Shown: positions 11,062 to 62,448 of the stretch, in pieces
Numbering within the stretch: position 1 is the stretch's first letter
Layout: every line of letters starts with the position of its first letter
From: Octopus vulgaris
Taxonomy: Eukaryota
Length of the DNA stretch: 64,000 bases
NCBI GenBank assembly: GCA_951406725.2
Contig: OX597833.1
Coordinates: 28,768,001 to 28,832,000 of the forward strand
Direction of reading: 5' to 3'
The notes under the pieces: model-generated
Database searches by the model: none
What the model was told of the DNA's origin: nothing
The model's input: the letters and a program-made list of their open reading frames with translations, nothing else
Translations under genes and position numbers: made by a program

Positions 11062-11230
11062 TAAGTAGGTGAATATATATATATATATATATACATACAT
11101 AAGTAGGTGAATGAATTATCCTATGTTTATTGTCAGCATGGAAAATTCGTTTAACCGAAACCTGGGTAGCAAATTCACGTCAGAAAACACGGTTGAAGCG
11201 ACCTGTCAAGGGTAGAAATTTATGTGTTGT

Positions 11231-13300
11231 ATATGAATAAATGAAAGAATGGAGTCGAACGAAGATGTTAACAAAATTCCTTTACTCTCGATACATGTTT
11301 CGAAGACAGCATATTTTCATTCCGAAGGAATAAAGGGTGCATTATGCAATCTTCTCATCAGGAAAGAAAAGGAGCCTCTCTCAACAACAAGACAAACAAA
11401 AATTTCGATGATTGCCTACATGGCAACCAAAGCGATAATGAGTGTTTTTTTAAATCCGTTATAAGCATTGACGTCAAAAATAGATAGTAGGAGGAAGTAA
11501 AAATAGGTAGGGGACAGTATGTTTGCTGTATGTATGGAAATGTGTGGGTGTGTGCTTGTGTTAATGAGTGCGTGTGTTTATGTGTGTGTGTATATAACTG
11601 CATTTGTGTCTGTGTGTGTGAGTGTGTGTGTGTGAGAGTGAGACAGACGTCAAAGATAGGTAGTAGTAAGGGAAGATATAAAGGAGTAATAGGTAGGGAA
11701 GGGGAAGTGTACGTTGATTGAAAGAATGTTCGGAGGCTTAGGGAAGAATTTCTCTATAGCAGTGGTGTGGACGTGAAGCTAATTGTTAAAACCACAGTGA
11801 CTATCGTTATAAGGGAAGGTTCGATTTAATTTGTTTTCCGAAAGGTATTACAAACCAGATACAGTTTTTTGTGGACTTTGAATTGTTCTTAGTGTTATTT
11901 GTGATAGTAAGGGGAAAATTTCTGTGTTGGAAATTTGGGGTTGCATAGCGCTTACTTCCCCTTGTCCGTAAAGAATTTATTTTATGTACAGGGGTGCTGG
12001 CACTATTAGAATTGAAATCATTATTCCTATTACGAGTAACTTTACTATCTTGAGAAGCAGATGTTGGTTTAGAATAAGCTGGGTCGATGTATGACACTTT
12101 TTCCTTATAACCGGCTCTTGACAAAGCGGCGTTATAGAATTCTGATTTTTGGTTAAAGATGTCGACATTAGCAGATAATTTGGACAGTCTCAGTGATATG
12201 TTTTTAACTAAATTATCGGTAATTGGCTTGGCATGGTTACTAAAAATGCTGATATACTTAAGATTAGTGGAAGGTTTATGATAAGGGAAGTATGAGTTAT
12301 TCTGCAGATTGAGGGTAATGTCCAAGAAGTTGGCTTTAGTTAATTCATCGTCAAAAACTATGCGCCAGCCCATTCTACTAAAAAACCTAACTAATCTGTT
12401 CTTAACCTTCTGTATTTTTTGGTTCGAAGCGTTTTGGAGGTAAAGCAGACAATCGTCGTGATAAAGACCTCCACAGATGTCCGGTAATTGGTCGGCCATT
12501 TCATAAAGAATATAAATTCCGACCAAATCGGCTATCTAGGCGCTGTCTGTACTTCCCATTAGTACATCAAACGCATTAGGGGTATCTCTACGGACCCACA
12601 ACTTGCTATCGAACTATATGAAAGATTTCCTAGCTGTCAATATCACACTAATTTCCTCCCTGGAGAGGCCTGTCTTATTGTGTGCGTGCCGTAGGGCCTT
12701 ATTATGTACAATAGGGTTGATTGAAGGATAGAAACTAGATATATCGAATTGTATAAATTTAGTGTTGGCCCCATCAGTAATAGAAGTAAACCAATCTACG
12801 ACTTGAACAAAATTGGACCATAAGCTAAGTTTTAATTTATTAATTAATATAGGGATATACTTATCTAATATGTATTTACTAAGGGTACCAATGTCTGAAC
12901 TGGAAGGGCATATGAGCCGCAATGCTGGGTTGGTATGAAAGTTCTGTTTGTGGTCCTTTAAGATGAATCTGGGTTGTCTGGGGTTCAATGGTTGCGTCTT
13001 CATCTGTAATCCGTAAGTCTCCATAATCTTCTTAGTTTCTAAGTTGGCCTGCCTGAGCGTATTCCTACTGGTGGTCCTGTAATTCTTATGTATCTCCCTT
13101 TTGAGCAGTTCTAAATAATGGCTCTTGGTAAGCTTATATGTGTTGCCGGTTTTATCCGATTGGACCAGGATGGAGTCTAATCTGTTTATATCTCTAGAGA
13201 CTTTATCGAGGTATCTGAGGTGTTTATTCCTGGGAGGGGACTTATGAAATTTAATATTCCTTACGATGTCCCAAAGATCATCTTCGAATTTCTTCAATCT
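11231..13300 (-). mobile_element. Naiad-type Penelope-like element, left copy: RT region fused directly to 3' UTR (endonuclease deleted)
   Basis: ORFs 12614-13297 and 11807-12526 give LRLICPSSSDIG, FIQFDISSFYPSI, FDVLMGSTDSA*IADLVG, GLYHDDCL, NFLDITLNL, PYHKP..SNH and WFVIPF. Segment 11231-11810 is the reverse complement of 14895-15484. Confidence 0.9.
11280..11371 (-). ncRNA. Type-I hammerhead ribozyme in the PLE 3' region, left copy
   Basis: Reverse complement reads CTTTTCTTTC-CTGATGA-GAAGATTGCAT...ATGCTGTCTTC-GAAA-CATGT-ATC-GAGAGTAAAG. The G16.2-to-A change breaks stem III. Confidence 0.7.
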
Positions 13301-15477
13301 AGATAGCTGATTTGGTCGGAATTTATATTCTTTATGAAATGGCCGACCAATTCCCGGACATCTGTGGAGGTCTTTATCACGACGATTGTCTGCTTTACCT
13401 CCAAAACGCTTCGAACCAAAGAATATAGAAGGTTAAGAACAGATTAGTTAGGTTTTTTAGTAGAATGGGCTTGCGCATAGTTTTTGACGATGAATTAACT
13501 AAAGCCAACTTCTTGGACATTACCATCAATCTGCAGAATAACTCATACTTCCCTTATCATAAACCTTCCACTAATCTTAAGTATATCAGCATTTTCAGTA
13601 ATCATGCCAAGCCAATTACCGATAATTTAGTTAAAAACATATCTGAGACTGTCCAAATTATCTGCTAATGTCGACATCTTTAACCAAAAATCAGAATTCT
13701 ATAACGCCGCTTTGTCAAGAGTCGGTTATAAGGAAAAAGTGTCATACATCGACCCAGCTCATTCTAAACCAGCATCTGCTTCTCAAGATAGTAAAGTTAC
13801 TCGTAATAGGAATAATGATTTCAATTCTAATAGTGCCAGCACCCCTGTACATAAAATAAATTCTTTACGGACAAGGGGAAGTAAGCGCTATGCAACCCCA
13901 AATTTCCAACACAGAAATTTTCCCCTTACTATCACAAATAACACTAAGAACAATTCAAAGTCCACAAAAAACTGTATCTGGTTTGTAATACCTTTCGGAA
14001 AAAAATTAAATCGAACCTTCCCTTACAGTTCCGTGAAGCCGTTGCTAGGAACTTTCCCAGAAATTCTAGATATCATTCCATTATCAATTCCCGCAAAGTC
14101 AGAATCGCTTTCTCTAACACTAGGAATCTTTCACAAATTATATCTTCCCACAATACCAAGCTGCTAAACAAAGATTCTTCACCCGGCAGTTCCAACACTA
14201 ATCTTACCAATTCCAACCCATCATACAATCATAATAATAGAAATAGTATTAACAGTACCAGCATTGGTAGCAGCGATAGTGTTAACAATAATAATATTAA
14301 TAATAGTATTAGTCGGGTTAATAACATTGGTAGTGTTGATGGTAACAACAATAACGGTATTATTGTCGGTGATATTGCTGGTTGTAGTACAATTAATAAT
14401 ACTAATAATAATAGAAATAGTGTAGTTGTTAGCCCTAGTATTAATAAAAACAACAATCAAAACAATAAAAACTTCGTCTCGATCTCGGAGGACAACCCTA
14501 ACAGAATAAAATTTTTGTCTAGTAATTCCAAAATTAAGAATTCCATTTACCAGTGTAGAATTTCTTCCGGTACCGATGTTTTCTTCTATATAGGAGCGTC
14601 CACTTCTCAGTTATCCAAGAGAATTTCTAACCACTATTCGACATTCAGAGATAGGAAAAAACGACATAGTTTAGGGCTAAGTAAATTAGTTTGGCGTCTT
14701 AAAGACAACAATATAACTTTCAAATTGGATTGGTTCATATTGTCTGTATCCTTTCCTTTTGATAAGGGCAGGAGATTTTGTAACTCTGAGCTCTTCCATA
14801 TTCTTTTCGCTGAGGTTCCCCTAGTAAACACACTCATAGAAAAATCGTACAAATGTAAACATTGACAGAAACACACTTTCTACTCATATAAATGATAACG
14901 ATAGTCACTGTGGTTTTAACAATTAGCTTCACGTCCACACCACTGCTATAGAGAAATTCTTCCCTAAGCCTCCGAACATTCTTTCAATCAACGTACACTT
15001 CCCCTTCCCTATCTATTACTCCTTTATAGCTTCCCTTACTACTACCTATCTTTGACGTCTGTCTCACTCTCACACACACAATCACACACACAGACACAAA
15101 TGCAGTTATATACACACATACACACACACATAAACACACGCACTCATTAACACAAGCACACACCCACACATTTCCATACATACAGCAAACATACTGTCCC
15201 CTACCTATTTTTACTTCTTCCTACTATCTATTTTTGACGTCAATGCTTATAACGGATTTAAAAAAAACAACACTCATTATCGCTTTGGTTGCCATGTAGG
15301 CAATCATCGAAATTTTTGTTTGTCTTGTTGTTGAGAGAGGCTCCTTTTCTTTCCTGATGAGAAGATTGCATAATGCACCCTTTATTCCTTCGGAATGAAA
15401 ATATGCTGTCTTCGAAACATGTGTCGAGAGTAAAAGAATTTTGTTAACATCTTCGTTCGACTCCATTCTTTCATTTA

Positions 15478-15484
<7 letters not shown>
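13299..15484 (+). mobile_element. Naiad-type Penelope-like element, right copy: RT C-half, Asn-rich linker, GIY-YIG endonuclease, 3' UTR
   Basis: 13299-14025 duplicates the left copy in inverted orientation. It continues RNFPRNSRYHSIINSRKVRIAFS..HNTKLL and SIYQCR...FFYIGAST...KRISNHYSTF...LSKLVWRLK...KCKH. The element ends in (TA)n. Confidence 0.9.
15344..15436 (+). ncRNA. Type-I hammerhead ribozyme in the PLE 3' region, right copy
   Basis: Stem I CTTTTCTTTC/GAGAG(T)AAAAG, CTGATGA 15354-15360, long stem II with inner hairpin ATTCC-TTC-GGAAT, GAAA 15414-15417, C-ATGT-GTC. Predicted cut after 15425. Confidence 0.8.
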
Positions 15485-15534
<50 letters not shown>

Positions 15535-20595: not shown

Positions 20596-20642
<47 letters not shown>

Positions 20643-20649
<7 letters not shown>

Positions 20650-20716
20650 AAAGTAAAAAGAAAAAGAGAAAATGCACACTGGATATAAAAAAATAAGGCT
20701 TTTTTATGAAAAGTAA

Positions 20717-20755
<39 letters not shown>

Positions 20756-21063
20756 TAGATGAACTGAGGTAGAATTAAGAGGTATAAAAGTCATTATTAT
20801 GAATTGTTAAAGAAGATTCAGAGTCAAACCGGTATCGTCAAAAACTGTTCACTGACTTTGAACAGCGAACAGCTTTTGACGATACCGGTATGACTCTGAA
20901 TCTTCTTTAACAATGCATAGTAATGGCTTTTATACCTCTTGATTCTACCTCTGTTCATCTAATTGTATATATATATATAGATCGTTACTTTTCATAAAAA
21001 AGCCATTATTTTTTTTATATCCAATGTGCATTTTCTCTTTTTTTCTTTTCACTTTTCCCCCTA
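20643..21063. repeat. Large hairpin: ~200-bp arms with a 16-nt spacer (20851-20866), in (TA)n context
   Basis: 20643-20850 is a close reverse complement of 20867-21063. Confidence 0.92.
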
Positions 21064-21113
21064 TTTATACCACGTGTAGTTTCTTTTCTCTTTGAAATCT
21101 ATAAATATATTTC

Positions 21114-21154
<41 letters not shown>

Positions 21155-21331
21155 GGGCTTAGTAAAATAAATTACTTTGCCACATACTGAACTTAGTAGA
21201 AATAGCAGCCAAAAAAAATTTTCTTAGCATTTCTACTACTTAAAGAAAATTTCTCTCAGATAATGTTTACTCCAGACAGCTCACGAAGGTTTGGGGGTAA
21301 ATACAGAAAAATATCACAAGTACATAGATCG

Positions 21332-21394
21332 TTTGAGTACGTCAACGTTTCAAGATTAGCCAAATAAAATCAGCATTTCTTTCGTCAGCTCAAA
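21332..21394 (-). ncRNA. Type-I hammerhead ribozyme with intact core
   Basis: Reverse complement reads TTTGAG-CTGACGA-AAGA..GCTGA TTTTAT TTGGC..TCTT-GAAA-CG TTGA CG-TA-CTCAAA. Stem I is a perfect 6 bp and the cleavage triplet is GUA. Confidence 0.85.
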
Positions 21395-21702
21395 ATTTCT
21401 TAATTTGGATTTGGAAACACTAAAAAGAAGGAACTTTACCTATCAGCGGACTTGTCGCTTCAGATGAACCACTCCAACTAACAGTGTCAACAAATTCAAA
21501 ATGCGCAGGCCTAAAATTCTGCACTCCCCATTCCACCCACGTGGTCTATCTAGCAAACATTATATTTTAACCGCGAGAACCGAGGCAGTATGACCGAGAG
21601 AAATGAATTATAATATCATACCCTCAAATATAATAATTTTACCCTCAATTGTTGATATATATATATATATATATATGTGTATATATATATATATATATAT
21701 AA

Positions 21703-27269: not shown

Positions 27270-30200
27270 TGATTTGATTTTGATTTTGATTTTTCTAGTT
27301 TCAGCTAATGAGCTGTGGCCATGCTGGGGCACCGCCATTTGGTTTGCTACACGATTTTACCTCACGGATGCTTTTTAGCAAACGCCATCTGATGCATGAG
27401 AGAGTTCGATGCAGCTGCCCTCATCTGCACCTCCTGCCGTGAAGTTGGTTCATCCGGGACACCTGACAGGAAGAGATCCAGTCCTACTTTAAAGACATCC
27501 GCATCCACACCATGCAGGTCCCTCAGGTTCTTTGGGAGGTTATTGAAGAGCTGTGGGCCTCTGAAGCCCAGGTTATCACAGTATCTTGTCCTACATCTTG
27601 ATGGCAAATTTGGAGTCCTTGGTACTACGCAGTGGCGTCCGGTTCTGGCATTTGTGTGACTCTCGATGCCAAAGTCTGGGACAAGTCCTTCCAGGATCTT
27701 CCAGATATATATTATGGCATATCTTTCTCGCCTACGCTCCAGGGAATAGAGCTTTAATCTCTTGAGTCTTTCCCAGTAGCTCATATGTTGCACAGAGGCT
27801 ATCTTCTTCGTGTAGCTTCGTTGGATCGCCTCAAGTTCTGTGATCAACTTGACACTGGATGGTGACCATAGCTGAGAGCAATAGTCAAAGTGGCTTAGGA
27901 TAAGTGTCTTCCAGAGGACCATCATGGTTTTTTGTTCTCTTGTTCTAAAGGTTCTAAGAATCCATCCAGCAAGCCGTCTACATTTCATTGCCAGTTTAGC
28001 AACATGTACATGAAAGGTCGCGTCATCACTCATGTGAATACCCAGGTCACGCACTGATTGTGCCTCTGGGATTGCAATCCCTCCGGGTCCAGTGTATTCA
28101 TTGGGTATTGCATTCAGTTTTGCATGCTGATAGTATAAAGCTTGAAACTTTTCAGCATTGAACTGCATGCTATTCTTTTCAGCCCACTTCTATATTTCGT
28201 CCAGCTCACATTGCAGGTGCTTAGTGTCTTCAGGGTTCTGTATTGCCTGTGAAACTTTTGTATCATCTGCATAACTTGTGATCGTGGCTCTCTGCGTGGC
28301 TGAGGGCATGTCTGAGAGGGCCATTATGAACATTAGTGGTCCCAAAACAGTGCCCTGCGGAACACCGCTCACTATTTGCGTGCTACCACCTGACTTCTAT
28401 TCTTCAGAAGGTCATGAAGCCATTCTCCCAATTTTCCAACTATGCCAAGATCACGCAGTTTGTGACATATCATTCCATGATCGACTTTATCCAAGGCCTT
28501 TGCAAAGTCGAGATATATGACTTCCACTTTTGAGTGGTTGAGCAGTTGTTTCAGCACCCAGTCATAGTGTTGTAGGAGCTGAGTTAAGCAGCTTCTTCCT
28601 GGTCGGAAACCATGTTGGGTGTCAGGCAGCAAGTCATTTTCTTCAAGGAAGGTGATTAGTTTCCTTCTGACTATTCGTTCCATGACCTTGCTGATGTGTG
28701 AGGTGAGAGAGATAGGTCTGTAGTTCTTGGCCTCTGCTCTGCTACCTCCTTTATGAATAGGGCATATTTTACCTTCCTTCAGTTTTTTTGGAAGTTTGCC
28801 AGCTGCAAGGAAGCTCTGAAAGAGGATCTGCAGTGGTCTTGCTAGGACTCTCTTACATACTTTTAGGAGGATTGCCGGGAATCGATCGGGGCCAATAGCT
28901 GAGTCTGTTTTCATTTCATCTATGGCCTTTATTACATCGTCTTCCTTTATATCGATGTAATTTATCGTCGCCGCCTCTGATTTTATATCTGCAGTGGTAA
29001 AGAAGTAAGTTGGATTGCTGATTTGGAAATGCCCGAGGGGTGGAGTGAAAACACTCTTGAATTGCTCATTCAGTATTTCACTTACCCTCATTGGTTTTCC
29101 TGTAAGTGTGCCATCCTTTTCAAGGAGTGGCCCTATCCTACAGTGCACTGTAGCTGTTTCTTTGGCATACCTGTAGAAAGCTCTGGGGTTAGATTTTATG
29201 TTGTCTATAGCCCAGGCTTCTTTGTCTGCTCTTTCCTTTTCATGGGAGAGTTGCAGACATTTTTCAATTTCCAGCAGTTTTATTTTCAGGCGGGACTTTT
29301 CACTGCTTTCAATTTGTTTGTTTAGGCGATTTGAAATTTTTGTACGCCGTCTCATTAAAATTTTCCTCTCTCTGGGGATTTTGTTCTTGTGTACAGTGGC
29401 CTTTCTCTCTGGGACACATTTGTAGCATATGGCTTGCGTTACAGAGATGAGTTGTTGAAGTTTCACGTCGATGTCTGGCGAGGAGAGACATTTAGGCCAG
29501 TTTTGTTTGAGGATCTCTTTCTCAATTTGTTTCCAGTTTGCCTTATGGTAGTTCAAGCTGGAAAGATTCTGAGGGTTTCTTGTAGGCTGCATGTCCGTGC
29601 TCTCTTTTGGCCCGTGCATGGTCAGCTCTACCATGTTGTGATCCGAGAGTAGTGTCGGTGTCACTTTCACATTATGGATGAGATCCATATTATTTGTGAA
29701 GCAGAGATCCAGTATGTTACCTGCCCTAGTTGGTTGGAGTATTACTTGCTCCATGTACAGGGTGTTGATGAGGTTCAGGAGGGACCTCGCCTGTCCTCGT
29801 TCACATCTTGTCATTCCTGGGAGAGAAAGGCCCTCAGGCCATCTGACATTGGGTAGATTGAAGTCTCCCATGAGAAGTACACTTATGTGTTGTTCTAATG
29901 TGATTAGAACTTCTATTTTTATAAGGCAGTCTTCGAACTTACCTACATGGCTTGGGGCATCTGGAGGGCGATATGTAGCACACACAACTACATCAAGTTG
30001 CCTTATGTGTACAATTAGTGTGTCACACACCGAGTTTGAGTATGACAAGAGGACCTGGGGTGTGAGGTCCTCACGGATGTACATAGCAACTCCTCCATGA
30101 CTCCTTTCTTTTCTGACGGTCCGTAGTACAACATACTGTGGTATGTGTAATTCCGCATCTGCTATGTCCGGTTTCAGGTGCGTTTCCGTGAGTGCTATGC

Positions 30201-30565
30201 ATAAGGCTTGATTGCATGCGACAAAGTCTCTCAAGAACGGGATTTTTGTCCTGTTACTGAGTGTTTGCAGTCCTCTGATGTTCAGTAGGAGCATCGAGGT
30301 GAGGTGTATGTTGTTGCCGGCGGTGTCCATCTTGGGTCTGTTTGCTGTGGTGGTCTTGTATATTGTGGGTAGTCCCACCTGCGAGCTTGGGTTTGATGAA
30401 GCCAGGTCAGCTGCTGTACAATCTTTTGTGCCATGCACAAAAAAGATTCTTGCTCAGCAGCTGCCCTTTCAACAACATCATGTTGGCGGTTTGTGGCACG
30501 CACCACATCTGCGTACCTCCGTTTTGGGGCAGGTGGTGCGTGGTCCATCCCTTATGTATTTTATA
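27270..30565 (-). mobile_element. CR1/L2-group LINE with near-complete ORF2 (APE endonuclease plus RT), disrupted
   Basis: APE motifs LNIRGL, LTETHL, YRPP, MGDFN, LDLCF, SDH. RT motifs NYRPISLTS, QHGFRPGRSC, LDFAKALDKV, GVPQGTVLGP, YADDTK. A deletion/frameshift near 28375 and a stop at 28190. The 3' tail is (AAATC)n-like. Confidence 0.95.
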
Positions 30566-41353: not shown

Positions 41354-41665
41354 GATGCACAATGGCCCAGTGGTTAGAGCAGCGGACTCGCAGTTGGGGG
41401 ATCGCGATTTCGATTCACAGACCTGGCGTTGTGAGTGTTCATTGAGCGAAAACACCTAAAGCTCCACGACGCTCCGGTGGGGGAGGAGAATCCTGCTCTA
41501 CACTTTCACCAAAACTTTCTCTCACGCTTATTCTCCCCGAAAACTACGCTAAGGGTACACGTATCTGCGGAGTACTCAGCCACTTGCACGTTAAGTTCAC
41601 GAGCAAGCTGTTCCGTTGATCGGATCAACTAGAACCCTCGACCCCGTAACCGACGGAGTGCCACG
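41354..41665 (+). mobile_element. SINE family C-like copy
   Basis: Head TGGCCCAGTGGTTAGAGCAGCGGAC..., shared with 10046. The 3' part differs. Confidence 0.75.
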
Positions 41666-41733
41666 ATATATATAGGAAAATAGAAAATGGAGACGAACGC
41701 TCAAGGTGTTATTAAATCATCTATATCTTCATA

Positions 41734-41822
41734 TCTCCTACACATGTTTCGATAGAAGCATCCAAACTACGTTTGAAATGATGAAAATAACGGTCAGCTA
41801 TGCATCAATCTCTTCAGGGAGA
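41734..41822 (-). ncRNA. Type-I hammerhead ribozyme with intact core
   Basis: Reverse complement reads TCTCC-CTGAAGA-GATTGATGCAT...ATGCTTCTATC-GAAA-C ATGT G-TA-GGAGA. An inverted partial copy lies at 41880-41942. Confidence 0.8.
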
Positions 41823-42769
41823 ATAACAGTACTCATCAAATAGACATTTTAACAGATATATGAAACCCCAGACATATCTTAGATGCATACATCAAAACAT
41901 GTGTAGGAGATATGGAGATATAAATGATTTAATAACATCTTGCTTGTTTCCGGATTCAAATCCCACACAAGTGTGTCCATTGTTTCCTAGGACACTTAAG
42001 CAACATTTAGCTCCCTTTGAATTATTCCCTCGGATCGGTTGTTGCTATATTATCTTTTAAACAGTTTTAATTTAGCTTTAAGCGTAGCAAAGTTTTAAAA
42101 TAATAGTTAATTACAAGTACACTTTTATTAGTACCTTTTTTTATAAATTTATTGCTTTTAATAGTTAGTGGTAAGTTTACCTTATAGCTTATAAGGGTAA
42201 TATATATTAAGAGTATGTGGTGTTTTTATTATTAACTTTTGAATTATGAAATAATGTATTTCACTCATAATTATTATATTATTCATTAAATTCAATGGTG
42301 TTTTTGTTTTGAAGAGAATTGAAATAAAGCTTTCACTTTCTGTTATTATAGTAATAACTACGGAAGACTGGTGTGATTATTATTTGTATGCACTTAAAGA
42401 TTGGTCGCTATTTAGTATATAATTTAGTTATTGTAGGTTTACAATTAATACCGATACAGATGTACATAGATTTATGTGTTTCTTGTTGTAGTTTAATCTT
42501 AAAGTTAGTGTTTAATCCTGCCTATATTTGATTGAATACTGTTGTTCATAGGGTAAATGTGTTTGAAAGTCGTGTGTTTTGCTCTTTTGGTATGTTTGTT
42601 TCCAAACAGCACCTCTTTAAGTGCTGTTGACACCGCCGGATAGAATAATGGTACTACCCAGGTGTCGAAACCATAATGATATCCGTGAGGTAGCTGATGA
42701 TGGAGGTATGGTGGATTGTTGGTAGGGCTGTTTGTGTGTATGTGGAATAGTGTTATAACACATCTTTTG

Positions 42770-42824
<55 letters not shown>

Positions 42825-42830
<6 letters not shown>

Positions 42831-43487
42831 TATGCATATATGGGTACAGGAGGTCACAAACTGTGTAAACAACATGGAGTACGAAAACAAGCGAGTTAAA
42901 CAGCAAACAACGAAAGAAAAATGGAAAACAGGACAAGTAAACACAACGACCAAACAACCCTTCATCAGTTGTCTATCTATTCCTCAATTCGAGCATTGAA
43001 CGATAATATGAGTCTTCAAAGATAGTTGTTACCATAAATCTAAAATAAAATTTGGGATTTATAGAGGGTCAAAATTGGAAACAAAAACAGGACAGCGGAG
43101 ACATACAAGGAAACAGAACGAAAACAAACATGGAGGGTCGTTAGACCAGAACGAGAGGAAAATAGTGAACGCAGGGAAACATTTTCTTTGAAAAGATAAA
43201 AGATAGAATAGAGAGAAAGAAAACGCCTAATCCTCAGAACGTCGTACAGGAAAAGAGAGATCGTCACGTGAGGAAAAGAAAGATGGGCGATGGTCACGTG
43301 TGAGCAACGAGAGAGACAGAGAGGGGAAAAAGAGAAAGAGGGGAGAGAGAAAGACTGATAGAAAATGGTGAAGGGAAGTAAAAAGGAATTAGAGAAGGAT
43401 GGGGGGCGAAAGCAGTGTAGAGTAGAGTCACATCAAAAAGGTTAAAATAAACTTACTTGGAAATAGATGCGTGGCGTTCAATTAAAT

Positions 43488-43490
<3 letters not shown>
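42825..43490. mobile_element. Dispersed repeat in (TA)n, probably PLE-derived
   Basis: 42825-43000 is homologous to 44562-44735 (ATGCATATATGGG...GTGTAAACAACATG.AGTACGAAAACAA). Confidence 0.55.
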
Positions 43491-43530
<40 letters not shown>

Positions 43531-43653
43531 CAACAACAAATTGAGGAACGGCTATAATAGGCCGTTCGACCCACTAGAAATAGCAACCAGGGCTAACCGC
43601 AAATAGTAGTAATTCCGAATCAGAGGAAAAATTAAAAAAACATTTACCCTGTT

Positions 43654-43769
43654 CTTCTTTAGACAATGCATTGTTTCAGCGTTTTTTGATGGCAAACCAG
43701 CCTGATTAAATTAAATTAAACTCAATCAAGTCAATCTTCCAAAGGCCAACGCGTTCATCAGTAAAGGAG
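43654..43769 (-). ncRNA. Type-I hammerhead ribozyme, copy 1 of a tandem pair
   Basis: Reverse complement reads CTCCTTTA-CTGATGA-ACGCGTT...AACGCT-GAAA-CAA TGCA TTG-TC-TAAAGAAG. Palindromic stem III, GUC site. Confidence 0.85.
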
Positions 43770-44141
43770 CCAGAAAGGGACAGAAATTACACGAGGCAGC
43801 TACCTTCATGCCTCGGCAATATCTGACCTAAAATTTTCAAAATCATCGTACTCGCACCAACTTATCGGCAGCAAATATAAACTGCCGATTCAATTTCGGA
43901 ATTAATCAGAAAATTATCAATTAATCAATATTAGGGTAGCAAAAAATTCAATAGAAATTATTTTGCCACCAGCGGTCCAGTGAGAAAAAGGAAATAGTCA
44001 GAGACTATTAATAAATTCAACAACAAATTGAGGAACGGCTATAATAGGCCGTTCGACCCACTAGAAATAGCAACCAGGGCTAACCGCAAATAGTAGTAAT
44101 TCCGGAATCAGAGGAAAAATTAAAAAAACATTTACCCTGTT

Positions 44142-44257
44142 CTTCTTTAGACAATGCATTGTTTCAGCGTTTTTTGATGGCAAACCAGCCTGATTAAATT
44201 AAATTAAACTCAATCAAGTCAATCTTCCAAAGGCCAACGCGTTCATCAGTAAAGGAG
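44142..44257 (-). ncRNA. Type-I hammerhead ribozyme, copy 2 of a tandem pair
   Basis: Same sequence as 43654-43769. Confidence 0.85.
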
Positions 44258-44500
44258 CCAGTAAAGGAGCCAGAAGAACAGGGTAAATGTTTTTTAAATT
44301 TTTCCTCTGATTCCGGAATGACTACTATTTGCGGTTAGCCCTGGTTGTTATTTCTAGTGGGTCGAACGGCCTATTATAGCCGTTCCTCAATTTGTTGTTG
44401 AATTTATTAATAGTCTCTGACTATTTCCTTTTTCTCACTGGACCGCTGGTGGCAAAATAATTTCTATTGAATTTTTTGCTACCCTAATATTGATCAATTG

Positions 44501-44566
<66 letters not shown>

Positions 44567-44767
44567 TATATGGGCAGAGGACATCACCAACTGTGTGTAA
44601 ACAACATGTAGTACGAAAACAAACGAGGTAAGTACGCAAACAACGAGAGAAAAATGGAAGACAAGACAAGTAAACACAGAGAACGACCTCTCATTAGTAG
44701 TCGGCTGTCTATCTACTCCTTATTTCGAGCATTCAACAGATATATATATGGATATATACATATATGG

Positions 44768-54470: not shown

Positions 54471-55100
54471 AAAATTGTTATTAAATCGTGGTTTTGGCCG
54501 TGTTGGCTGCTATTTCTACCTATTAAAGGGTAGTTTTCTTTTGTGTTTAAATGTACACTATTTTAAAATATGAATATGTTGTCTACTGACTATTTATACA
54601 TGCTAGACCACATGTGGTGATATTTATAACGAATATTCGCTACCCTACATATGTATCTTATGAATATGTTCTTAGCATTCTCGAAGATTCGGCTCGGCAT
54701 TGTATTTATTGCCGACTGTAAATGTGCCTGCGCGCGAAGTTTTGAAAAATTATAACATATAATGACGGGGCACGTGTTCTTGTCTCTGAATTATAAGTAA
54801 TTTATTGAGGCCGGTTACTGATGAGAATTCGCCTGGCGATAATATTGTTTTGCTAAATTACCTACTAAAGGATGGCAAATAATCTTATCTTCTAAAGAAA
54901 TTCGAGACCATGTTGATACAGATGTTGATAACCGCTAATAAAAATAACAAGGTAAAAGTTTTTAGTTTTCAATTCCTTCGAAAATTGCTATTAAATCGTG
55001 GTTTTGGCCGTGTTGGCTGCTATTTCTAGCATGCAAAAATTACCTATTAAAGGGTAGTTTTCTTTTGTGTTTAAATGTACACTATTTTAAAATATGAATA
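54471..55100 (+). mobile_element. Non-coding unit with ~110-bp direct terminal repeats (period 510 bp) and a degenerate HHR
   Basis: 54471-54577 repeats at 54981-55100. Internal CGGTTA-CTGATGA-GAATT...AATTC-GAGA...TAACCG at 54812-54934. TA-rich flanks. Confidence 0.65.
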
Positions 55101-55169
55101 TCTATATATATATATACATACATACATATATATATATACATATATATACATACATATATATATATATAT

Positions 55170-60330: not shown

Positions 60331-62448
60331 TTTGATTTGATCTAGTTTCAGCTCATGAGCTGTGGCCATGCTGGGGCACTGCCATTTGGTGTTGCTACAT
60401 AATTTTGCTTCACTAATTCTTTTTAGAAATCGACATTTGGTGCATGAGGGAGTTTGATGCCGCTGTCCTCATCTGCACTTCCTGCTGTGAAGTTGGTTCA
60501 TCTGGGACACTTGACAGTAGGTCTCTCAGGTTCTTCGGGAGGATATTGAGCTGTCGGCCTTTAAAGCCCAGGTTGTCGCAATATCTTGTCTTATACCTTA
60601 ATGGTAAAGTTGAAGTCTTTGGCACTATGCAGTGGCCCCCTATTCTAGCATTAGTATAACTCTCGATGCCGACGTTTAGGACAAGTCCATCTAGGATCTT
60701 CCAGATGGCATATCTTATGGCCTATTTTATGGCATATCTTTCCCGCCTACGCTCTAGGGAACAGAGTCTCAATCTCTTGAGTCTTTCCCAGTAGCTTATT
60801 TGCTGCATAGAGGCTATCTTCTTCGTTGGATTGCCTCAAGTTCTGCAATTAATTTTACACTGGTTGGTGACCATAGCTGGAAGCAATAGTCAAAACAGCT
60901 TAGGACAACTGCCCTCCAGCGGACCATCATGGTTTCCTGATTTCTCGTTCTAAAAGTTCTAAGAATCCATCCGGTCAGCCCCTCTATTTCATTGCCAAGT
61001 TAGCAATATGCACATGGAAGGATGCATCATTACTCATGTAAATGCCCAGGCCTCGCATTGACTTTGTTTCTGGGATTGCAATCCCTTTAGGTCCAGTGTA
61101 TTTAACTGGTATTGCATTTAGCACAAGGCTTGAAACTTTTCAGCATTAAATTGCATGCTATTCTTCTCAGCCCATTTGTATATTTCATCCAACTCACGTT
61201 GCAGGTGCATAGCGTCTTAAAGGTTCTGTATCACCTGTAAGACTTTTGTATCATCTGCATAATTAGTGATGGTGACTCTCTGTGTGGCTGAGGGCATATC
61301 TGAGAGGGTCATTATGAACAGTAGTGGTCCCAAGACAGTGCCTTGTGGAACACGGCTCACTATTTGTGTGTCACTGGAGGTGGCCCCATTGGCTACTCCC
61401 ACCTGACTCCTATCCTTCAAAAAGTCATGCAGCCATTCTCCTAATTTTCCGACTATGCCGAGATCACGCAGTTTGTGACATATTCCATGATCGACTTTAT
61501 CGAAGGCCTTTGCAAAGTAGAAATATATCACATCCACATTTGAGTGGTTGAGCAGCTGTTTCAACAACCAGTCATAGCGTTGTAAGAGCTGAATCAAGCA
61601 GCTTCTTCCTGGTTGGAAACCATGTTGGGTGTCAGTCAGCAAGTCATTTTCTTCAAGGAAGATGGTTAGTTTTCTTCTGACTATTCATTCCATGACTTTG
61701 CTGATGTGCGAAGTCAGAGAGATAGTCTGTAGTTTTTGGCCTCTGCTCTGCTACCGCCTTTATGAATACGGCATATTTTACCTTCCTCCAGCTTGCTTGG
61801 AAGTTTGTCTGTTGCAAAGAAGCTCTGGAAGAGGGAATGCAGTGGTCTTGCTAGAACTCGCTTACATGATTTTCATCTATAGCCCTTATTATATCGTCTT
61901 ATTTTATATTGATGTAATTAATCATCACTGCCTCTGTTTTTATATCTGCAGTGGTAAAAAAAAGTCAGTTGGATTGCTGACTTGCAAGTGTCCTAGGGTG
62001 GACTGAAAATACTTCTGAATTACTCATTTAGTATTTTACTTATCCTCCTCTTTGGGGTTTCCTGTGAGTGAACCATCTTTTTCGAGGAGTGGCCCTACCC
62101 TGCAGTGCACTGAGGCTGTTTCTTTGACAAACTTGTAGAAGGCTCTGGGGTTAGATTTTATGTTGTCTTTAGCTTAGGCTTCTTTGTCTGCTCTTTCTTA
62201 TTCATGGGTGAGTTGCAGATTGTTTTTCAATCTCCAGCAGTTGTATTTTCAGGCTGGATTTCTCAGTGCTTTCAGTTTGTGTTTAGGCGATTTGAAATCT
62301 TTGTATGCCGTCTCATAAAAGTTTTCCTCTACCTCGGGATTTTGTTCTTGAGTACAGTGGCCGTTCTCTCCGGGACACATTTGTAGCATATGTCTTGCAT
62401 TACAGACATGAATTGTTGAAGTTTCATGTCGATGTCCGGTGAGGAGAG
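60331..62448 (-). mobile_element. Second, older 5'-truncated copy of the CR1/L2-group LINE
   Basis: Colinear with 27270-29490. Motifs QHGFQPGRSC, FAKAFDKVDHG, VPQGTVLGP and YADDTK, with many indels. Confidence 0.93.

Follow-up and report, generated by a model that had tools for sequence, protein, structure and literature searches.

A likely non-autonomous Penelope-like element with tandem hammerhead ribozymes and an inverted copy that starts just past a predicted cleavage site

Penelope-like elements (PLEs), as described by Craig et al. 2021 (PMC8557442), leave insertions made of partial tandems, at whose 5' end a 5'-truncated copy frequently sits in inverted orientation, and several clades show a bias toward (TA)n targets; the same insertion pattern appears in Arkhipova et al. 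2013 (PMC3846280). The hammerhead ribozymes of these elements have a palindromic stem III and an extra base at the foot of stem II and work as dimers, and circles have been proposed as templates for reverse transcription over more than one unit (Cervera and de la Pena 2014, PMC4209133). Circular RNAs derived from non-LTR retrozyme repeats were shown in mussel (Cervera and de la Pena 2020, PMC7229834), and a recent preprint argues that retrozymes derive from PLE pLTRs and reports that one of nine predicted dimers of Xenopus retrozymes cleaved in vitro (Li, Clavereau and Pollet 2026, bioRxiv 10.64898/2026.07.22.740005). PMC8557442 regards the role of PLE hammerheads as unclear. In the in vitro system of PMC11167929, both strands of the target were cut and extended by a PLE protein; the ribozyme of the Anolis PLE required protein, and PLE insertion in that system did not depend on hammerhead cleavage.

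The window analysed here, a whole stretch of 64,000 nucleotides of microsatellite-rich eukaryotic DNA, contains at 43531-44505 an element whose entire build is, by analogy, that of a standard Penelope-like insertion as outlined in PMC8557442, a correspondence that the original prediction for this DNA had overlooked. Read in the sense of its ribozymes, which lie on the minus strand, the locus consists of (TA)n, an inverted arm, a junction, 114 nt of a unit, one full unit, 131 nt of a unit and again (TA)n, the tandem extending over about 1.5 units of 488 nt and including two complete ribozymes. The left (TA)n microsatellite (43488-43529, from the sequence and the tandem-repeat listing) is the likely target site and is touched by the 3' end of the direct arm, that is, by the last partial unit (43531-43661, minus strand), which sequence comparison places at +1 to +132 past the cut of hammerhead 1 with one base deleted. 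The core descriptor and folding place hammerhead 1, of type I, at 43662-43773 (minus), with its predicted cut after 43662; the full unit, from cut to cut, occupies 43662-44149 (minus, 36.9% GC); and hammerhead 2, of the same sequence as hammerhead 1, lies at 44150-44261 (minus), with its predicted cut after 44150. On the plus strand, two perfect copies of the 12-mer TAAAGGAGCCAG, a templated duplication at the junction, stand at 44250-44273, and an inverted 5'-truncated copy of the unit from +4 to +237 follows at 44272-44505, up to the right (TA)n microsatellite (44504-44571). Both element ends abut (TA)n in the tandem-repeat listing; TRF has no 488-nt array among its listed repeats, the element holding only about 1.5 units. 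A single 1-nt indel, which falls outside the ribozyme, separates the direct copies over about 245 nt; the inverted arm is 98% alike to 43913-44146 over 234 nt, with four substitutions relative to the adjacent unit.

Two copies (83.5% alike) of another repeat, at 42767-43009 and 44498-44747, each touching (TA)n, flank the element. As a target duplication these direct repeats were rejected, being too diverged, with the left copy about 520 nt from the element.

The locus shares with EN+ PLE insertions (PMC8557442 and PMC3846280) the partial tandem, the adjacent inverted truncated copy at the 5' end, the (TA)n target, a hammerhead with a palindromic stem III and microhomology at the junction. It differs from them in having no RT or GIY-YIG open frame within 43531-44505, and its two 3' ends, at +132 and +237, are 105 nt apart, whereas the PLE tail between 3' ends, which is optional and is not found here, measures 30-40 nt. 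The longest stop-free stretch is 46 codons, even when the 488-nt unit is read as a circle. Since the build is of the PLE type (partial tandem, inverted 5'-truncated copy, (TA)n target), with no coding frame and a GC content of 36.9%, a PLE derivative is the most likely identity, and it is filed as non-autonomous because of the missing RT plus GIY-YIG frame. We therefore think it probable that the element is a non-autonomous PLE, that is, a non-LTR retrozyme, inserted by a Penelope RT/endonuclease that primed one cDNA per cut target strand.

With the non-LTR retrozymes of PMC7229834 and of the 2026 preprint (bioRxiv 10.64898/2026.07.22.740005) the element has in common non-coding low-GC (under 45%) tandem units with a type I hammerhead in each, a dispersed multi-copy family, hammerhead-bearing PLEs nearby and a proposed circular RNA intermediate. 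Its unit of 488 nt is longer than the circles of 170-400 nt in PMC7229834 but within the range of 51-972 bp in the preprint, and it is set apart by 77 nt in stem II, by its extent of only about 1.5 units and by the inverted arm; its cleavage and circles are predicted ones. The kind of element is thus already known, its unit and its stem II being at the long end, and the family may already stand in the consensus files of Craig et al. or in Repbase entries.

Hammerhead numbering and the NUH rule for the cleavage triplet are used in their conventional form. The minus strand carries two cores of the pattern CUGAUGA...GAAA...GUC, at 44249-44150 and 43761-43662, which are spaced by 488 nt and do not differ across the ribozyme. 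In hammerhead 1 the 5' strand of stem I (43773-43762) is followed by CUGAUGA (43761-43755), by the 77 nt of stem II (43754-43678), which are predicted to fold as a single long hairpin, and then by GAAA, the palindromic stem III and GUC. Stem III is the palindrome ACAATGCATTGT, 12 nt long when A15.1 and U16.1 are counted, and ends in GUC; stem I is paired at seven of eight positions, the inner five perfectly. The bulged base at the foot of stem II that goes with the palindrome in PLE hammerheads is likewise present, and this foot is an A-U pair in this copy. A strict descriptor (stem I at least 5, stem II at least 5, stem III at least 3) gave three matches in the window, namely both cores of the element and one in another element, and none in 20 first-order-Markov resamplings of the window. 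Rfam returned no match at its gathering threshold across the whole window, and no hammerhead family up to an E value of 10 in 43400-44600, probably because stem II is long. The hammerheads of the window have 53-155 nt in stem II and were missed by Rfam, so counts obtained with short descriptors may be too low.

In folding predictions the double hammerhead lies 4.7 kcal/mol above the minimum, as against 13.3 for two monomer folds, and cleavage in the monomer fold was accordingly rejected as the favoured form. The two palindromes pair with each other with a probability of 0.79-1.0, and stem I is rarely formed in the unconstrained fold (pair probability at most 0.015). Much of what had been read from the letters before this analysis was borne out. 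It had called identical tandem hammerheads 488 bp apart on the minus strand, with a palindromic stem III and a stem II of about 77 nt, an inverted copy at 44272-44505, and a 12-nt duplication at the join containing the complement of the 5' strand of stem I, all of which were recovered; and its further proposal, a 488-nt monomer released by two cuts that might circularise, agrees with the dimer-type cleavage that the modelled energies would favour and with the circles published for non-LTR retrozymes (PMC7229834).

Copies of the family were found in sequencing runs of at least two organisms. Part of the stretch is contained in 20 of the 24 runs listed, under four organism codes, and four of the 24 were compared by aligning their contigs to one rotated unit (43600-44086) at a likeness of at least 85%. 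A total of 2,365 contigs matched the unit (652, 993, 583 and 137 in the four runs), most of them 90-99% alike, and all 29 bins of the unit were covered in each run. As judged from these contigs, which give no copy number, the family is dispersed and multi-copy, with many variants. Run X14, which is presumed to be RNA, has contigs in every one of the 29 bins, and these carry no strand, end or circle information; none of the runs listed as containing the stretch is on record as RNA, which says nothing on expression. Joints at which a contig goes back along the unit fall at the artificial edge of the rotated unit and are no sign of tandems or circles.

The family also bears on the G10.1-C11.1 pair, with an extra base at 9/10.1, that is a trait of PLE hammerheads. 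A-U in the present copy, these unphased sites carry G at 10.1 in 53-65% of the summed depth in each of the four runs, while C at 11.1 makes up 65-75% in three of them and 11% in X1; all variant figures come from the 40 of 72 rows listed. The cut triplet is changed from GUC to GUA in 19-29% of the summed depth in three of the four runs, and CUGAUGA, GAAA and the inner stem I show no change among the 40 of 72 variant rows listed. Sparing of the ribozyme by family variants makes it look like a conserved ribozyme and is no proof of activity. In organism B, run X4 contains variants that skip all or most of the ribozyme (43652-43862, depth 437; 43678-43809, depth 197). The summed contig depth, which is no copy number, reaches 100,000-560,000 at 43804-43990 in three runs, as against less than 8,000 at 43753-43803, and this middle part of the unit may be either common to a more abundant repeat or better conserved. 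Searches with a 21-nt core pattern in metagenome contigs gave two loci, both chance matches of 16-17 nt without further likeness to the unit, and a 25-nt pattern gave no match in genome contigs and none in viral contigs.

Other hammerhead elements in the window provide a local comparison. At 11230-15485 there is a PLE with a broken RT plus GIY-YIG, made of a direct arm (13299-15485, plus) and an inverted arm (13298-11230, minus) that are 96.6-98% alike; each arm has a hammerhead with a 53-nt stem II and ends 57 nt past the cut, and an Asn-rich stretch precedes the nuclease. Its assignment as Hydra-like follows from a DKT motif and the (TA)n target, as described in PMC8557442, and not from a tree. 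The inverted arm carries 0.75 kb missing from the direct arm and therefore cannot be a fold-back of it. Pfam had no match in the frames of this PLE, no homologues of its RT fragment were found among longer proteins, and in the Atlas the fragment fell with unnamed eukaryotic clusters and DUF8422 (43% of one cluster). No autonomous partner of the 488-nt unit was found in the window, the PLE at 11-15 kb having no significant DNA likeness to it (score 12). At 41660-41942 there is a further hammerhead (core 41817-41739, minus; 60-nt stem II) that resembles, by eye, that of the 11-15 kb element, and a 64-nt inverted arm of this third element runs through its cut site (41702-41765 versus 41879-41942). 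Finally, 54471-55101 is a diverged relative of the 488-nt unit (likeness score 36, against at most 23 in 100 shuffles), a partial tandem of about 510-524 nt in TA-rich DNA.

How the inverted arm of the 488-nt element arose is constrained by its junction. The 4-nt microhomology AGAA (44272-44275, plus) belongs both to the end of the direct arm (unit 375-378) and to the start of the inverted arm (+4 to +7); since it fits both sides, the arm start lies anywhere from +4 to +8 after the predicted cut. The original prediction, which had put this start 3 nt past the cut, was right that it falls just after the predicted site, and the exact position has to be widened to that range. It had further proposed that stem I complementarity guided a template switch during reverse transcription. 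In that exact form the proposal is unsupported, because the join lies outside the stem I register: it pairs +4 to +7 with unit 375-378, whereas the stem I register is +1 to +5 with 384-388.

In the explanation that we prefer, tandem transcripts would fold both palindromes into a double hammerhead and be cut to 488-nt monomers, some of which would circularise. A first cDNA would begin near +132 and extend over about 1.5 units of a circle or of an uncut multimer, crossing two ribozyme sites left uncut; a second, begun at +237 on the same template lineage, would stop at the 3' edge of the ribozyme; and the two cDNA ends would be joined via the microhomology AGAA, slippage giving rise to the 12-nt duplication. 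A recurrent end near +134 is weakly hinted at by loose ends at 44026 among the family contigs. At all 13 family-variable sites checked within it, the inverted arm has the letter of this locus, even at sites where X1 mostly carries another, and so derives from the same template lineage as the direct arm, which from the sequence fits a second target-primed cDNA and a self-primed fold-back equally. We lean toward the second cDNA on account of the extension of both strands by PLE protein in vitro (PMC11167929), the arm of the PLE at 11230-15485, the (TA)n at the outer end of the arm and the position of the join outside the stem I register. As for what stopped that cDNA, we give roughly equal weight to run-off at a 5' end made by self-cleavage and to a stall at the folded ribozyme or chance.

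The junction may thus record a ribozyme cleavage, and a single junction cannot show that. Extended to a family rule, inverted arms would be cDNAs that ran off ribozyme-cut linear monomers, with starts piling up at +1 to +8; this rule, a sharper form of the stop step of the second cDNA in the preferred explanation, whose confidence it partly shares, strikes us as possible if somewhat doubtful. The arm start at +4 to +8 would come about by chance for one uniform breakpoint with a probability of 8/488, or 1.6% (3.4% within 237 nt), and a cDNA that ended at +1 would need only a 3-nt flap trimmed for the AGAA join; this is nevertheless one event, and the chance rises to 12-22% with eight breakpoints inspected. 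The contig class of organism B that runs from 43652 to 43862 skips the ribozyme with a breakpoint at about +10. Of the window's three inverted arms, the present one alone begins directly behind a cut: the start of one of the others is 2,127 nt upstream, within the RT frame, and that of the other is 11-27 nt upstream, so that this arm passes through the cut. In the diverged relative at 54.5-55.1 kb the start lies some 12 nt upstream of a putative and degenerate cut. From the sequence, these other starts suggest that copying stops both before and after the cut, in the neighbourhood of the folded ribozyme. That a ribozyme cut can set a genomic 5' junction has a precedent in R2, whose HDV-like ribozyme cuts at the 5' junction of the element (PMC3774820); both the ribozyme and the retrotransposon class are different, and the match is experimental there, whereas here it consists of one junction 3-7 nt from a predicted cut. 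In Anolis, according to PMC11167929, not one RNA-seq read started or finished at the hammerhead cut. Moreover, the arm start coincides with the 3' boundary of a large folded domain, a position that stalling or fold-back would give without any cut. The observed start is predicted alike by run-off where a cut RNA ends, by stalling at the folded ribozyme and by self-priming.

A more specific version, to which we give rather little credence, is that this one insertion recorded both RNA forms, the direct arm representing 1.5 laps of a ligated 488-nt circle and the inverted arm a run-off copy of a cut linear monomer. If this were true, arm starts in the family would pile up just 3' of GUC and would provide a genome-only readout of germ-line hammerhead cutting in Penelope-type elements. 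A multi-copy, short-unit family with inverted arms allows arm starts to be compared with the cut in silico: starts that set in abruptly at +1 would be a sign of cleavage in living cells, and starts scattered across the ribozyme would suggest that the RT stalls. In the literature covered, with most subscription papers and older Penelope structure papers outside the search, we found no mapping of PLE inverted-arm starts against the hammerhead cut.

A self-primed fold-back would need no cleavage: the first cDNA would have passed the second ribozyme, folded its 3' end onto its own post-cut segment, copied the hairpin and later joined the right flank. Self-priming has been proposed for PLE inverted junctions with palindromes (Arkhipova et al. 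2013, PMC3846280), and such an origin accords with the 125-nt spacer between the arms, whose two breakpoints bracket one ribozyme domain, and with an arm that lies wholly inside the direct arm and has its letters at the 13 variable sites. We nonetheless judge it unlikely, since the join is outside the stem I register and left the available 5-nt stem I match (+1 to +5 with 384-388) unused, the outer end of the arm abuts (TA)n directly, as a primed end would, and the PLE at 11-15 kb indicates that inverted arms which fold-back cannot explain do arise in this genome. The four substitutions in the 234 nt of the arm, against one indel between the direct copies, also speak against it, although this excess (three of the four fall in the part that the three copies have in common) does not reach significance (p 0.11; Fisher 0.21).

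Very improbable, finally, is a later rearrangement or assembly artefact, whether an inverted duplication at the DNA level after insertion or a chimeric fold-back read: PLE tandem and inverted structures do trouble assemblies (PMC8557442), and no strand-change joint, the present junction included, is listed among the 2,365 contigs of the four runs, but contigs drop rare variants, only 76-80% of X1 and X2 was covered in the comparison, the insertion may be private to one individual, the arm has four substitutions of its own, the one at +52 also occurring in a contig of run X2, the microhomology is clean with a templated duplication, and inverted arms occur in two further hammerhead elements of the window as well. 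The four joint rows and the six rows with intervening letters that were listed contain no strand change, and none of the 24 loose contig ends listed, out of 237, falls at 43655-43662, which does not amount to evidence of absence.

Several further features of the window were observed. The relative at 54471-55101 has a degenerate hammerhead with 155 nt in stem II and has the motif GCTATTTCTA in common with the 488-nt unit. The same motif is carried by a single hammerhead element at 21151-21654 (core 21388-21338, minus), which lies between two (TA)n runs and whose far end resembles an inverted 3' end. At 20637-21069 there is a large imperfect hairpin (an 83% inverted repeat) with internal (TA)n runs and (TA)n adjoining. 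LINE-type frames were seen on the minus strand, with an AP endonuclease plus RT at 28372-30453 and a separate RT fragment at 61217-61684.
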